Positions 5,380-16,406 are shown, counted from the first letter of the stretch. The stretch is DNA of 28,312 bases from Oligoflexus sp. (GCA_041736305.1 JBGSTX010000041.1:1-28312); one strand, 5' to 3'. Notes: generated by a model from the letters alone, not told the origin. A program made the numbers and translations.

Positions 5380-6514
5380 GCCTCATTTCCGAGAGGTGCA
5401 AAAAAATCATCCCTACCTAGCTAGCTTCCTCTCGCTTAGTCTCATTTTCCTCGGCCTAGCTCTGGCTCATTTTGCACTCTGGTTCCTGCTACTCCGCCAA
5501 AGTCCAGATCGGAGCTGGTTCAGTTTGCTCAGTGCTTGGGACGCTGGCTGGTATCTGCGTGTCGCAAGTGAAGGCTACGATGCTGCCAGCTCGGCCTTTT
5601 TACCCCTCTATCCTGCACTCATTCGCGGAACTGCTGCACTCTTTTCTTGGTCGAGCCGCGAAGCCTATCTTGGAATCGGGATCGTCCTTTCCTTTCTCTT
5701 ATTCTTCGGCGCTCTCTACGCCCTCGTGCGCTTAGGAAGCGAAGGGGAAAATGTGCGTGAGTTGCCTCTTTCCAGCAGGCTGCCGACCCTCTGGGGTCTA
5801 ATCCTTTTAATCGCTAGTCCAGCTTCCTATGTTTTTCATACTTTGCATACAGAGTCACTGTTTCTCTTCTCTTCGGTCCTGGCCTTTCTGGCTCTATCAC
5901 GCAATAGGCTCTTCGCAGCGGCAGCCTGGGCTGGAGTCGCCGCTTTAGTGCGGCATCAAGGCGTTTTTCTGGCAATTGGAATAGCCGTCGGATTGGCGAT
6001 AAAAGCCGATGGTCGGTCTCAGAGCTTGCGTCGGTTTGTTAGTTCAGGACTTATTAGTGCTAGCTTTTGGGCTCTTACGCCGCTTTTACATCTATGGCAG
6101 GGAAGGAGTGCTTTTCCAGCATTGGATGCCCACAACGAGAATTGGTTTGTTGCCGACGGTCTCGGGGCTTACTTTAAAACATTCGTGTTCGCTAATCCCA
6201 TCCAAAATCTTCGGCCTGGTAGCATTCTCCACCATCTATTCTTCTTCGCGCTTGTGGCTGGGACTGTGCTTCTCTTACGACGGCGTCGCTGGGCTGAGGG
6301 TACTTACGTGCTTTTGAGTTTAGCGGTACTGCCCATGCAGGGCGAATTGGTCGATTCCTTCCGCTTCGGAGCCGTCCTCTTTCCCCTTTTCTTTTTGGCT
6401 GGCGAGTATGCTCTTAAGCTTCAGGCTAAGTGGCGTTGGCTAGGTCTCTTCTTCTATTTTGCGTTCAATATGCTAGTGGCTTGGCAGTATGGAAATCAAC
6501 GCTGGGCCTACTGA
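5378..6514 (+). CDS. Multi-pass GT-C membrane glycosyltransferase (PIG-V/mannosyltransferase-like)
   Basis: WDAGWY..VA.EGY, AFLPLYP, HTESLF motifs; about 10 hydrophobic segments. Confidence 0.85.
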   Translation: MPHFREVQKNHPYLASFLSLSLIFLGLALAHFALWFLLLRQSPDRSWFSLLSAWDAGWYLRVASEGYDAASSAFLPLYPALIRGTAALFSWSSREAYLGIGIVLSFLLFFGALYALVRLGSEGENVRELPLSSRLPTLWGLILLIASPASYVFHTLHTESLFLFSSVLAFLALSRNRLFAAAAWAGVAALVRHQGVFLAIGIAVGLAIKADGRSQSLRRFVSSGLISASFWALTPLLHLWQGRSAFPALDAHNENWFVADGLGAYFKTFVFANPIQNLRPGSILHHLFFFALVAGTVLLLRRRRWAEGTYVLLSLAVLPMQGELVDSFRFGAVLFPLFFLAGEYALKLQAKWRWLGLFFYFAFNMLVAWQYGNQRWAY

Positions 6515-13364: not shown

Positions 13365-13390
13365 CTGGACTGCCCTCGCGGGCAGTCCAG
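13365..13390. terminator. Hairpin between convergent genes, probable bidirectional terminator
   Basis: Perfect 11-bp stem ctggactgccc-tcgc-gggcagtccag. Confidence 0.8.
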
Positions 13391-13409: not shown

Positions 13410-14936
13410 CTAGAAGAGATCAAGAGGCTGCTGCAAGTCAAAGAGCGTAAGAGCTGGTAGTTCCGCAAGCTCCCTTTGCCACTCGTATGAAGGCGCAAGC
13501 AGCCCGTCCATATTCAATAGACGATCGCTTGGGGCTTGGTCGCTATCAAGGAAAATGTCGTAAACCTTGGCGTCACTACTGGGCTTATAGGTCCTGAGAG
13601 CGCTAATCGTTTGCCAATTGCGGTCTGCGCTAGGAAGTTGGTCTCCGGGCTTTAAATCTTGAGCCAAAAGCAGACCGCGCCGGCTTACAAATGGATGCAA
13701 ACTCGTCACATCGATTTTCTTATCGCCCAATTTAATCTCGACCATAGAGGTGGGAGGTGGTGTTTCATGCACATAGAGGACTTTCTCAGGTCGCTTGAAC
13801 TTTGGATTCCAAAGCATATGCCCATATTTAAGTGTCGATATTTTCTTGAACGAACCATCAGCCATCTGGACCAGAGTATCCGATCCCCATGAGTCGCCTG
13901 CAGTATTAAGTGTTGGTCCCAGATTCACGTGGATACCTGCTAGACAAGTTTTTCTGCTTCCGTCAGGGCCAGCTACGCTGAGCTCTATCCACTGACTGTT
14001 TCTTGCTACAAAACTAATGCTGCTGAGACCGACATTTTTCGCCAAGAGTCGGGTAGCGCCAGGATAGGGAACTTCCACCGAGCTCTTGGACAGTGTGCCC
14101 GCTGCAAAATTCAAAGGTCCTTCTAGACCTGGTGCTTGCCTGACTGAAGCATCTACTACCACGCCGTTGCCCATGAAGTGAGCTGTAACAGTTTGACCTG
14201 CATCAGTGTCATGGGCCCAGCCTCGGGCTACGCCAGGGCAACTCATGAAAGTAGCAGGCTTTAGAACCTGCTTCGGCTTTCCAGTTGCAGGATCGATGAC
14301 GGGTTTACCGGTACTAGGGTCGATAACATTAACCATCATCGCTGGGGATTGAATACACTGAAAGCCCTGGACTGAACTGTTACCCGAAAAAGCCATAGAG
14401 CAGCTAGGAGTAGGTGGAGGATCTATTTCGACCTTGGCTTTAGCTTCGCCATTTGTTGCATTTTTTAACAATGCAGTATCGACCTTGGAATCAGCTACAA
14501 CGGCGGCATGAGTGATCAAGTAGGGTCTGCTGCTCTTGTTAGTCTCGAATCTGTTGAACCTGATGTAGCTGGTCGAATCCTTCCCTTCAGGGCTGGCATG
14601 GTAGGATTTTGAATAGACCATAATAGTGTTTGGGCTACTACCCCATAATGGATTTGGTTTGGCACTGGGAGTAGTGGCGAGGACCGCGCTTTTTACCGGC
14701 AAGTATGGATCAGGATAAATCGTTGGATTAGGGGCCGACATTAAAGATTGAAAGACGCCAAGCGCATTTATGCTAAGATCGGTAGCCTCTTGGTTCGCAT
14801 TATTTATATCCGAGGATTTGAGCGCCGACTGGGAGCGCAGGCCACTGTATGTACCGATTATAGCCCCTATGCTAGCTATAACGAGAACCAGGCCGATCGC
14901 ACCGAACCCGTCATTTCCCTGTCCATTACTTTGCAT
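13410..14936 (-). CDS. PilX/GspK-like minor pilin with C-terminal Hint (intein/hedgehog-like) domain
   Basis: AGGAG RBS; MQSNGQGNDG|FGAIGLVLVIASIGAIIG class III-like signal lacking Glu5. Hint block A SWGSDTLVQMADGSFKKISTLKYG (Ser349), block B VTSLHPF, AQDLKPGDQL, block F KVYDI, and LNMDGLLA. Confidence 0.8.
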   Translation of the reverse strand: MQSNGQGNDGFGAIGLVLVIASIGAIIGTYSGLRSQSALKSSDINNANQEATDLSINALGVFQSLMSAPNPTIYPDPYLPVKSAVLATTPSAKPNPLWGSSPNTIMVYSKSYHASPEGKDSTSYIRFNRFETNKSSRPYLITHAAVVADSKVDTALLKNATNGEAKAKVEIDPPPTPSCSMAFSGNSSVQGFQCIQSPAMMVNVIDPSTGKPVIDPATGKPKQVLKPATFMSCPGVARGWAHDTDAGQTVTAHFMGNGVVVDASVRQAPGLEGPLNFAAGTLSKSSVEVPYPGATRLLAKNVGLSSISFVARNSQWIELSVAGPDGSRKTCLAGIHVNLGPTLNTAGDSWGSDTLVQMADGSFKKISTLKYGHMLWNPKFKRPEKVLYVHETPPPTSMVEIKLGDKKIDVTSLHPFVSRRGLLLAQDLKPGDQLPSADRNWQTISALRTYKPSSDAKVYDIFLDSDQAPSDRLLNMDGLLAPSYEWQRELAELPALTLFDLQQPLDLF

Positions 14937-15116
14937 ACATTGCTCCTGCTAGACTGCTCACTCTCTAAAGATCCAGATCGGCTCAGTGGGGAGACTCCTT
15001 TATCTCTCTTTCTAAATGTCCGTTTTAATGAGTTTTAATGTCTAAAAGAAACTTGAGATAAAGATGTGGCATGAATCTGACGACAAAGCTTTGACTCGTG
15101 GAATCTCGGGGGTTTT

Positions 15117-15701
15117 GTGAATTATTCGTCAAGGGCAGGTTTCACATTCACAGAAGTTATGGTGAGCATGTTCATTCTCGGGCTCTTAGGGCTAGGAATG
15201 AGCAATATACTCCTCCGTGCCAAGGAAAGTAGCTCAAGAGAAGAATTGCGTAAGAACCAAGAAGATATTCAGCGCGAACTCATACGCCGTCTCAGGCATC
15301 ACTTTGAAAGGCATTCTTCCAAAATTATGCCAGCACCTCACCGACTCACTATGAGTACTCCAAGGGGGGAAGTCATAGTTGAAACCATCTGCGTGGATAA
15401 TAACTTGGATTGGCAGACTGCCGATAATCTTATGAAGAGCTGCGTTAAGTGCAAACCTTCTCAGCATCCTGTTATCCGTATCAAGGAGCCCAATCAAACA
15501 CTGTACTTTCCAGGTCAGCTCCAAAAGGCCGAACTCCCTGCGGCTGTGTCCATTTGCTTCAAAAAAACTTCGGATCCTAATGAAGTCGGTATAGAGGTCG
15601 CGACTCTTATGATCGATCCAATTACGCATCAGGCTAAACGAGTCAATAGCTTTGAAACGTATTTAGTTAAAGACGCAAGTAACTTTACTTTTTACGAGTA
15701 A
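15117..15701 (+). CDS. Prepilin-type N-terminal cleavage/methylation domain protein (minor pilin/pseudopilin)
   Basis: GTG start; SRAG|FTFTEVMVSMFILGLLGL with Glu5; four Cys. Confidence 0.9.
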   Translation: MNYSSRAGFTFTEVMVSMFILGLLGLGMSNILLRAKESSSREELRKNQEDIQRELIRRLRHHFERHSSKIMPAPHRLTMSTPRGEVIVETICVDNNLDWQTADNLMKSCVKCKPSQHPVIRIKEPNQTLYFPGQLQKAELPAAVSICFKKTSDPNEVGIEVATLMIDPITHQAKRVNSFETYLVKDASNFTFYE

Positions 15702-15704
15702 GAA

Positions 15705-16406
15705 ATGAGAAATAGATCAGAGTCCGGATTTTCCTTGATCGAAGTGATCGTCGCTGTTTTGCTGCTAAGTCTCGTGACTTACATGCTGTCTTCGCAGCAA
15801 AAAAGGGTGCAAAAGAACTTCTTCAAGGTGATGAGCCGGGACGCCCATCTGCAGGTCATCGATGTGGTTAAGAGCCGCTCTAAAAAGTCCTTGGGTCAGA
15901 TTCTCTTGATGGCCAATACTAATCCTAATGCGCTCCCTCCGATCTTCAATGCTAAGCTCGATCTTGGGGAAGGCATGCAGCTGCAGTGGGTTGGTCCTCG
16001 TGAGGTCGGTGAGGATTTTTCAGGTGTGCAATATGTCAGCACTCCGGATCCTGCGATCGAAAAAGTTTTGAGGGGGTGCAGGCAGTCTAAGACGTTCAAG
16101 GAGGTTTGGACTGGCGCCGAGCTGGTGAATCGGCGGGCTTCTCCTCGTCTGATTTTCTGCTCGCAGCTGCTTCTACCACCGGGAAATACCTCGCCGAGCG
16201 CGAGCAACATATCGCATTCCAAAGCAGGTTTTTTAGCTCTCGATGTGAATTTCACAAGGACTATAGATGGCGCAGCTATACCTCTTTCCCAGTTCGGCAG
16301 CGGCGGCACGCTGGCTACTGTTACATGGACTCTCGTCTGGAGTTATGAAAAAAGCAAGAATGAAGTGCAGCAGTATAGAAAAGGCATTTTTCATATTGTT
16401 CCTTAA
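15705..16406 (+). CDS. Prepilin-type N-terminal cleavage/methylation domain protein (minor pilin/pseudopilin)
   Basis: SESG|FSLIEVIVAVLLLSLV with Glu5; starts 3 nt after the previous stop. Confidence 0.9.
   Translation: MRNRSESGFSLIEVIVAVLLLSLVTYMLSSQQKRVQKNFFKVMSRDAHLQVIDVVKSRSKKSLGQILLMANTNPNALPPIFNAKLDLGEGMQLQWVGPREVGEDFSGVQYVSTPDPAIEKVLRGCRQSKTFKEVWTGAELVNRRASPRLIFCSQLLLPPGNTSPSASNISHSKAGFLALDVNFTRTIDGAAIPLSQFGSGGTLATVTWTLVWSYEKSKNEVQQYRKGIFHIVP

Follow-up and report, generated by a model that had tools for sequence, protein, structure and literature searches.

A three-gene minor-pilin-type set in Oligoflexus whose large, pilin-like subunit ends in a Hint domain

What would a Hint domain be doing at the end of a pilin-like protein encoded beside two minor-type prepilins? 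The question is raised by a locus in a 28,312-bp stretch of DNA (the window), which is the entire contig C214 of a 5.02-Mb Oligoflexus draft genome, 92.7% complete; the genus is placed in Oligoflexia, phylum Bdellovibrionota. Two prepilin genes with the canonical glutamate at mature position +5 (Glu5) diverge there from the gene of a larger protein that has a pilin-like N-terminus lacking Glu5 and a C-terminal Hint domain (a Hint-pilin). We consider it fairly probable that the three genes encode a minor-pilin set of modular build, acting in priming or at the tip, and that its large subunit self-cleaves its Hint tail. An initial annotation, made from the sequence of the window alone, had described the arrangement, and a listing of open reading frames (ORFs) reproduced its coordinates, its 180-bp divergent spacing and its N-termini, with G|FTFTE and G|FSLIE prepilins (the bar marks the cleavage position) opposite a G|F protein without Glu5. 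The gene-level features are:

13410–14936, minus strand: gene for the large protein (508 aa), modular and pilin-like, without Glu5 and with the Hint domain at its C-terminus; AGGAG lies 6 nt 5′ of the ATG.
14937–15116: divergent intergenic spacer, 180 bp.
15117–15701, plus strand: gene for a 194-aa Glu5 prepilin, GTG start.
15705–16406, plus strand: gene for a 233-aa Glu5 prepilin.

The three-gene set is real and not a chance juxtaposition, since full-length homologues exist and the arrangement is the same in every orthologous locus examined. All 10 further matches to the 508-aa protein were full-length, at 51–58% identity, and its orthologues lie in Oligoflexus tunisiensis Shr3 (the type strain) and in Oligoflexus metagenome-assembled genomes. 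The search for related loci with a single-protein query returned no relatives; an alignment query recovered them. In all nine loci that hold an orthologue (L005, L006, L023, L024, L025, L029, L030, L031 and L032) the Hint-pilin gene adjoins orthologues of both prepilins, so that the three genes do co-occur, as had been expected of them. These nine are partly redundant (L030 and L031 repeat L024 and L023, the pilins of L029 are identical to those of L005, and L032 lies on the same contig as G067:C782) and represent six distinct other genomes, including O. tunisiensis Shr3. The surroundings of the trio differ between the window and genome G072, and between both of these and the pair G071/G063. 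At 5446–8771 of L028 (G049:C67), a more distant relative of the Hint-pilin (30% identical) adjoins two pilin-like genes that have Ser and Asn, not Glu, at +5.

Both small proteins are Glu5 prepilins, as first annotated. The 194-aa protein begins MNYSSRAG|FTFTE and the 233-aa protein MRNRSESG|FSLIE; they score 26.9 and 27.1 bits with Pfam N_methyl (cut-off 21.2) and 20.3 and 20.6 bits with TIGR02532 (cut-off 16.3), respectively, and Glu5 is invariant in an 8-sequence alignment of each. Also seen in these alignments are four invariant Cys in the 194-aa prepilin and, in the 233-aa prepilin, a conserved C-terminal RKGxxHIVP strand. The closest language-model cluster of the 233-aa prepilin is a ‘PilV family’ from Bdellovibrionota (score 0.96, 183 shared features).

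The large protein is built of three domains in series, with these features:

14907–14936, minus strand: putative class III leader, aa 1–10 (MQSNGQGNDG), with Gly-1 before F11; predicted to be processed by prepilin peptidase.
14418–14936, minus strand: pilin module, aa 1–173, a 58-residue alpha-1 helix plus antiparallel sheet in AlphaFold2 models.
13914–14417, minus strand: Ig/PKD-like beta-sandwich, aa 174–341, with generic immunoglobulin (Ig)-like structural matches, Z up to 7.7.
13890–13895, minus strand: predicted autoprocessing junction Asp348|Ser349, Ser349 being Hint position +1.
13467–13892, minus strand: Hint domain of the bacterial intein-like (BIL) kind, aa 349–490, from Pfam, a hidden Markov model (HMM) alignment and profile searches.
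13695–13706, minus strand: Hint block B, T411-S-L-H414 (TxxH).
13413–13466, minus strand: 18-residue tail after the Hint domain, with no C-extein or toxin.

Its N-terminus is MQSNGQGNDG|FGAIGLVLVIASIGAIIG, that is, G|FGAIG with Gly at +5; orthologues read RESG|FSTMGLVIIVAG, so G|F and the hydrophobic stretch are conserved. The layout of a class III signal is present, with a short leader ending in Gly and then about 20 hydrophobic residues. Glu5 and the N_methyl signature are absent (Gly at +5, no match to PF07963 or TIGR02532), and a scan of the large protein with Pfam and NCBIfam gave no match to any pilin family. Conserved in the pilin module are PxIYPxPY and W98.

AlphaFold2 models were made of aa 1–348 (20 sequences; mean predicted local distance difference test, pLDDT, 82.9; predicted TM score, pTM, 0.66) and of aa 1–175 (18 sequences; pLDDT 80.8). 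In both, one helix (aa 9–66/67) packs on an antiparallel sheet that is followed by a beta-sandwich. When the aa 1–175 model was aligned with VIA-align to 48,161 representative chains, the five best were all pilins (Z 7.6–6.4): the Streptococcus sanguinis minor pilin PilA (7o5y_B; Z 7.6, root-mean-square deviation 3.5, 106 residues aligned), a Thermus competence pilin (6qvf_A, Z 6.9), XcpV (5bw0_B, Z 6.8), EpsI (2ret_A, Z 6.7) and GspI (3ci0_I, Z 6.4). Only eight chains reached Z ≥5, and the GspK homologue XcpX gave Z 3.9. We therefore assign aa 1–175 to the small, GspI type of pilin fold, but only with moderate confidence, because Z values below 8 are only ‘middling’ on the tool’s own scale. 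Together with Gly at +5 and the conserved G|F helix, the modelled fold bears out the description of the large subunit as pilin-like without Glu5.

A conserved PPPxPxC linker leads into the Ig-like domain, and Cys 179, 194, 233 and 331 are invariant in 12 orthologues; the four Cys thus fit a periplasmic or extracellular location of the protein. Across the entire Hint-tailed family, the 53-sequence consensus has PxxYPxPY and PPxPxC as marks of the pilin and linker regions, and relatives with Cys at the Hint +1 position have a Cys-rich linker (C..C...C...C) immediately before their G|CF junction.

By its sequence the C-terminal domain is a member of the HINT superfamily, with a nucleophile at +1 (Ser349), the TxxH motif of block B (T411, H414) and profile similarity. 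The call is secure by profiles and weak for the single sequence, and the domain runs over aa ~349–490, slightly beyond the 349–483 first proposed. Against Pfam the large protein alone scored 24.5 bits with Vint (cut-off 27; aa 352–416) and 18.1 bits with PT-HINT (cut-off 27.7). A 33-sequence profile gave significant matches to solved Hint and BIL domains: 6tmm (E 1.9e-13), 2lwy, a ‘bacterial intein-like domain’ (2.7e-13), 8w20 (2.3e-10), RecA mini-inteins (~1e-7) and Sonic hedgehog (2.9e-4); a 53-sequence profile matched 2lwy at E 4.5e-14. Among 53 pilin-like carriers of the domain, Pfam at E ≤0.01 found Vint in 44, PT-HINT in 32 and PF01079 in 11. The Vint cut-off was exceeded in 3 of the 10 relatives scanned (P0033, 34.8 bits; P0052, 30.7; P0023, 28.0), and the three PF01079 scores examined were 17.6–19.6 bits, under the cut-off of 29.7.

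Residues D348, S349, W350, T411 and H414 do not vary among the 12 orthologues, which are 41–58% identical to the window’s protein. Motifs of the wider family were counted in an HMM alignment with 160 domain rows from 159 of 160 proteins. The block B Thr position is T in 143 rows, S in 16 and N in one, and 159 of the 160 hold the block B His. At the junction, 125 of the 145 rows that hold the column have G|CF and 20 have D|SW (15 rows lack it). The window’s clade shows co-varying changes, each fixed in the clade: C to S at 349, F to W at 350, N to D at 460 and GD to PS at 482–483. Mean pairwise identity is similar along the protein (Hint 0.66, pilin module 0.68, Ig module 0.70).

What chemistry would such a domain allow? 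The tail past the last conserved Gln is short in this family (median 15 aa, range 4–67, n = 142), so the Hint domain is always C-terminal. Of the two positions before that Gln, the first is G in 133 of the 160 rows and the second is D in 135; the window’s clade has PS at this place. We take the two positions to be the equivalents of the His-Asn of intein block G. C-terminal cleavage and splicing are excluded, because the intein His-Asn is absent and only 18 residues follow the Hint domain. On these sequence features, the reactions left to the domain would be an N-terminal acyl shift and then hydrolysis or transfer only.

Three established classes were considered for the domain and rejected. 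An intein is ruled out by the lack of a C-terminal His-Asn and a C-extein, with a tail of just 18 aa; a PT-HINT polymorphic-toxin cassette is ruled out by the lack of C-terminal cargo; and Hog-Hint in the strict sense is ruled out by the D|SW junction and 18-aa tail, relatives with G|CF having equally short tails. This Hint type probably corresponds to the C-type BIL of Bdellovibrio, which was reported in 2009.

Can the three proteins be expected to form one complex? The initial annotation had suggested modeling them together, expecting a GspIJK-like trimer. Mature parts were used, with separate alignments of 8, 8 and 20 rows (7, 8 and 19 as counted by the job). The predicted trimer scored 0.75 (0.75, 0.76 and 0.75 in three runs), against 0.15 for the best of three controls, which lacked pilin helices; of 80 solved complexes 58 attain the mark that it passed, as do 2 of 110 mismatched pairs. 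At least 89% of contacts agreed between the runs, and the pLDDT of the partners was 82 or higher. The surest contacts outside the helices join the C-terminal strand of the 233-aa pilin (aa 225–232) to aa 50–64 and 109–112 of the large subunit. Because the controls were not pilins, custom alignments were used and solved GspIJK-type complexes exist, the pass is to be read as likeness to GspIJK-type complexes and not as binding.

The more specific proposal, that the large subunit is a homologue of PilX or GspK, was not supported. None of the 53 Hint-family relatives matches these families, its model has a single helix and no GspK alpha-domain, and XcpX ranks low among its structural matches. PilX_N had no match in the host genome (the control matched in two genomes), and in the ESM Atlas, where the best score for aa 1–348 was 0.83, PilX_N annotates 19% of a rank-12 cluster, a lead at most. 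Since there is no family match and the best structures are GspI-type, the likeness to GspK and PilX is positional only, in that this subunit lacks Glu5 and is the largest.

The initial annotation had called for a survey of pilin N-termini joined to Hint domains, and the architecture proved to be recurrent. A scan of 1.84 billion cluster representatives returned 481 proteins at E ≤0.001, 66 at E ≤1e-10 and four at E ≤1e-30, nearly all of the 481 matches covering aa ~349–492 only. In a set of 131 genomes, which was aimed at the phylum and covered genomes of the host’s own class only, the Hint profile (E ≤1e-8) matched in 93 genomes, which span 42 of the 55 genera, and a single genome has as many as 10 copies. 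The N-termini of 160 carriers were pilin-like without Glu5 in 60, pilin-like with Glu5 in 6, lipoprotein-like in 17, otherwise hydrophobic in 32, without signal or fragmentary in 41 and without a start codon in 4. Hint tails stand on TadE-like pseudopilin N-termini in P0084, P0088, P0101 and P0132 (Pfam TadE is matched in P0084) and on true N_methyl prepilins in P0152 and P0094, the former also with collagen repeats; since such fusions exist, Hint tails occur on several classes of type IV filament subunit. One locus (L037, G030:C125, 6002–10253) carries a same-strand tandem of three Hint-tailed ORFs; two (660 and 666 aa) are near-identical, and the third is truncated by the contig end. A protein homologue search with the 53-sequence profile found close orthologues only, all unnamed or ‘hypothetical’; the names in public records are ‘hypothetical protein’ or ‘Hint domain-containing protein [Oligoflexus sp.]’.

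Neighbouring genes were surveyed at 40 places of roughly 130, chosen roughly by E-value after leaving out orthologues of the window, places in the host genome, places near a contig start and frames with stops. A strict Glu5 prepilin ORF lies within 3 kb of 16 of the 41 sampled Hint ORFs (at least 150 aa; one 88-aa fragment was dropped). The same detector gave 18 detections in the 5.02-Mb host genome, about four of them spurious by eye, from which about 1 in 41 would be expected. The enrichment over this density-based expectation is thus about 16-fold; it is an enrichment and not a statistical test, because the sampled genomes are related.

The initial idea of an interchangeable module fits the presence of paralogous modules in the host genome itself. 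The Hint HMM finds four ORFs there, on contigs C214, C174, C1 and C96. Those on C214 (the window), C174 and C1 have an N-terminus of Gly plus a hydrophobic stretch that lacks Glu5, and a strict Glu5 prepilin lies no more than 3 kb from each. The two paralogous modules, at C174:3667–7655 (L026) and C1:2419–6509 (L027), have G|CF junctions. Both also hold an extra gene of 313 or 315 aa, the copies 23% identical (E 2e-10), which matches no Pfam family and has no counterpart in the window. The fourth Hint ORF, of 300 aa (C96:25835–26737, minus strand), bears a signal of Sec type, and no prepilin lies near it.

Three further clusters of the host genome, at C46:2042–4570, C95:1551–4330 and C159:12739–16647, combine Glu5 prepilins with a non-Glu5 protein (279, 407 and 521 aa, respectively) and are Hint-less. 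An HMM of the N-terminal region (345 columns, built from 53 carriers) matched the three Hint-pilins of the host genome at E 5e-56, 8e-53 and 2e-41, one of the three matched proteins being a row of the alignment and a close relative of another perhaps also one, and it did not recognize the non-Glu5 pilin-like proteins of the three Hint-less clusters. Because it finds the Hint-tailed proteins and not the Hint-less ones, the pilin-Ig-Hint architecture is one family.

With which filament would the module work? As the initial annotation had stated, no ATPase, platform or secretin gene is nearby; T2SSE, T2SSF, Secretin and Peptidase_A24 have no match on contig C214, and the matches of the host genome lie elsewhere: one to Peptidase_A24 (C62), eight to T2SSE, four to T2SSF (in two genes, C10 and C313) and three to Secretin. 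With its two N_methyl prepilins the locus is thus, as described, a minor-pilin-type cassette set apart from the assembly machinery. Contig C10 carries a pilB/pilT/pilC-like row and C23 a PilA-like 174-aa prepilin, and C313 carries a type II secretion system (T2SS) row with its own pseudopilins. Because the C313 cluster has pseudopilins of its own, a type IVa pilus (T4aP) seems likelier than the T2SS as the host filament, judged by gene content. A search for the PilY1 family found no match in the host genome, but its control also matched nowhere, so this result is uninformative.

We suggest the following course of events. The trio would be inserted in the inner membrane and processed by prepilin peptidase. 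The two Glu5 prepilins and the large pilin would use their N-terminal helices and globular heads to build a complex for priming or for the tip, with motor, platform, secretin and prepilin peptidase supplied from elsewhere in the genome. The large subunit, having no Glu5, would be uppermost and display its Ig-like domain. After export, the Hint domain would perform an N-to-O acyl shift at Asp348|Ser349, aided by Thr411 and His414; the resulting ester would be resolved, most simply by water, and the Hint tail of about 160 residues shed, leaving a mature subunit that ends at the Ig-like domain. We infer the cleavage, its timing and its nucleophile, and likewise the prepilin processing, the incorporation into a pilus and the tip position of the large subunit.

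Several observations weigh against parts of this account. The leader of the window’s large protein has no basic residue, unlike the RESG|F of its orthologues; pilin families, PilX_N included, match none of the 53 Hint-family relatives at E ≤0.01; the structural likeness to pilins is middling; and Foldseek, which had been proposed as a check, returned no pilin from the PDB for the aa 1–348 model (only cadherin and Ig tandem matches, TM up to 0.22) and nothing at E ≤0.001 for the aa 1–175 model. Generic helix bundling may inflate the trimer score, given the kind of control used, and solved GspIJK-type complexes may be remembered by the trimer model. The genomes counted are kin, hence non-independent. 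As for the chemistry, the window protein’s Vint score falls short of its cut-off, and the clade’s Ser for the usual Cys, with the co-varying changes, could mean altered or lost activity.

This last point underlies an alternative that we regard as unlikely, in which the Hint domain of the Ser-type clade is retained uncleaved, as a silent binding or adhesion module at the pilin end or as a periplasmic plug. The D|SW junction in place of the family’s G|CF (20 against 125 of 145 rows), the changes at three further positions and the low Vint score all speak for retention, and modular pilins bearing binding modules are common (PMC8179133). However, S349, T411 and H414 are invariant over 12 orthologues at 41–58% identity, and the domain is conserved like the rest of the protein. 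Ser is, besides, a regular Hint nucleophile, as in inteins. Were the cleavage to occur, the ester (a thioester in G|CF relatives) might instead be resolved by a specific nucleophile in a Hedgehog-like transfer of the tip subunit’s C-terminus, an outcome that we think quite unlikely: it would make the tip subunit a ‘chemical harpoon’ on a retractile type IV filament, covalently linked to a lipid, a cell-wall component or a molecule of the target surface, and this harpoon would be widespread in both Oligoflexia and Bdellovibrionota. The coupling to a lipid, surface or prey molecule that the initial annotation put forward is likewise speculative.

The link to pili is itself given up if the large protein belongs to the envelope, anchored by its signal or secreted by Sec, and has a self-cleaving tail but only happens to be encoded next to pilin genes. 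Carriers with lipoprotein-like (17 of 160) or other hydrophobic N-termini (32 of 160), the Sec-type signal of the C96 ORF with no prepilin nearby, the absence of a pilin Pfam match in the large protein’s family and the 25 of 41 sampled Hint ORFs without a strict Glu5 prepilin within 3 kb would all be expected of such a protein. We nevertheless judge it improbable: the best structural matches of aa 1–175 are pilins, Gly-1 and the hydrophobic helix are conserved, the trio is kept in all orthologous loci despite their different surroundings, the predicted trimer passes its controls and adjacent prepilins are some 16-fold enriched. The PT-HINT matches, which are weak (18.1 bits for the window’s protein, and E ≤0.01 in 32 of 53 relatives), bring to mind a pretoxin-type HINT cassette that releases a C-terminal effector, yet just 18 residues follow the domain (family median 15, range 4–67, n = 142) and the module is without a toxin or immunity gene, which makes such a cassette extremely improbable. 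The self-cleaving minor-pilin set remains the reading that we prefer.

Around the module, the flanking genes are of housekeeping type: a FadB-like enzyme, a 2Fe-2S plus molybdopterin oxidoreductase and a sigma-54 activator. Neither toxin nor immunity genes were found among the three genes of the module, and no sigma-70-like site in the 180-bp spacer (14937–15116). One further feature separates the Hint-pilin gene from the fadB-like gene, which is convergent to it:

13365–13390: terminator-like hairpin with a perfect 11-bp stem.

This hairpin is likely a bidirectional terminator.

Minor pilins decide the tip function of type IV filaments. A Hint-tailed family of tip candidates would add self-cleavage or covalent transfer to the abilities of pili; in addition, it would place a bacterial Hint type in a biological context. 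There are three Hint-pilin modules in the host genome alone, and the family is widespread in the lineage. Since the type strain O. tunisiensis Shr3 has an orthologous copy, the module is open to direct testing.

How does the module compare with known systems? Like GspI-GspJ-GspK of the T2SS and PilV-PilW-PilX of the T4aP, it combines Glu5 minor pilins with one large non-Glu5 subunit, and the pilin core of that subunit resembles GspI, XcpV and EpsI (Z 6.4–6.8). It differs from GspIJK and PilVWX in having just three genes, coded away from the machinery, and its large subunit differs from GspK and PilX in having Ig-like and Hint domains, no alpha-domain and no PilX_N.

Among Hint proteins, the likeness to Hedgehog (Hog-Hint) lies in a C-terminal Hint domain that is able to act only on its N-terminal junction. 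The Hedgehog junction is G|CF, as in this Hint family. Vint and Hint are the best Pfam matches here and Sonic hedgehog was matched at E 2.9e-4, but there is no sterol-recognition region, only a short tail, and the window’s clade has D|SW. BIL domains (A-type, as in 2lwy, B-type and C-type) share the Hint fold family and occur in variable secreted bacterial proteins, and the solved domains closest to the window’s Hint type by sequence are 2lwy and 6tmm. C-type BILs, whose description in Bdellovibrio is reportedly due to Dori-Bachash et al. (2009), come from the phylum of the window’s organism. A-type BILs end in His-Asn and are able to splice, according to PMC7765530; the present type has GD there (PS in the window’s clade) and no C-extein. 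PMC9185962 mentions a ‘PPS-1’ domain in C-type BILs, to which the conserved N-terminal companion domain described here might correspond.

Among pilins, the architecture has a general precedent. Peptidase S74 modules are self-cleaving intramolecular chaperones. A pilin fused to such a module (IPR030392) is included in a survey of modular type IV pilins, which were proposed to lie at the filament tip (Raynaud et al. 2021, PMC8179133). Like the modular pilins described in its main text (S. sanguinis PilB and PilC, CofB), the large subunit has a small pilin module with functional modules grafted at its C-terminal side. The words Hint and intein are absent from the main text of PMC8179133, although its Dataset S1 of 264 architectures may list one; an InterPro-based survey would miss this particular pilin, because its pilin module lacks the N_methyl signature. 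Our literature searches found nothing linking Hint or intein domains with type IV pilins (Dataset S1 of PMC8179133 might), in agreement with the initial statement that no pilin-Hint system has been characterized. These comparisons suggest that the combination of pilin and Hint domain is new for pili and that the module is a variant of known minor-pilin sets.

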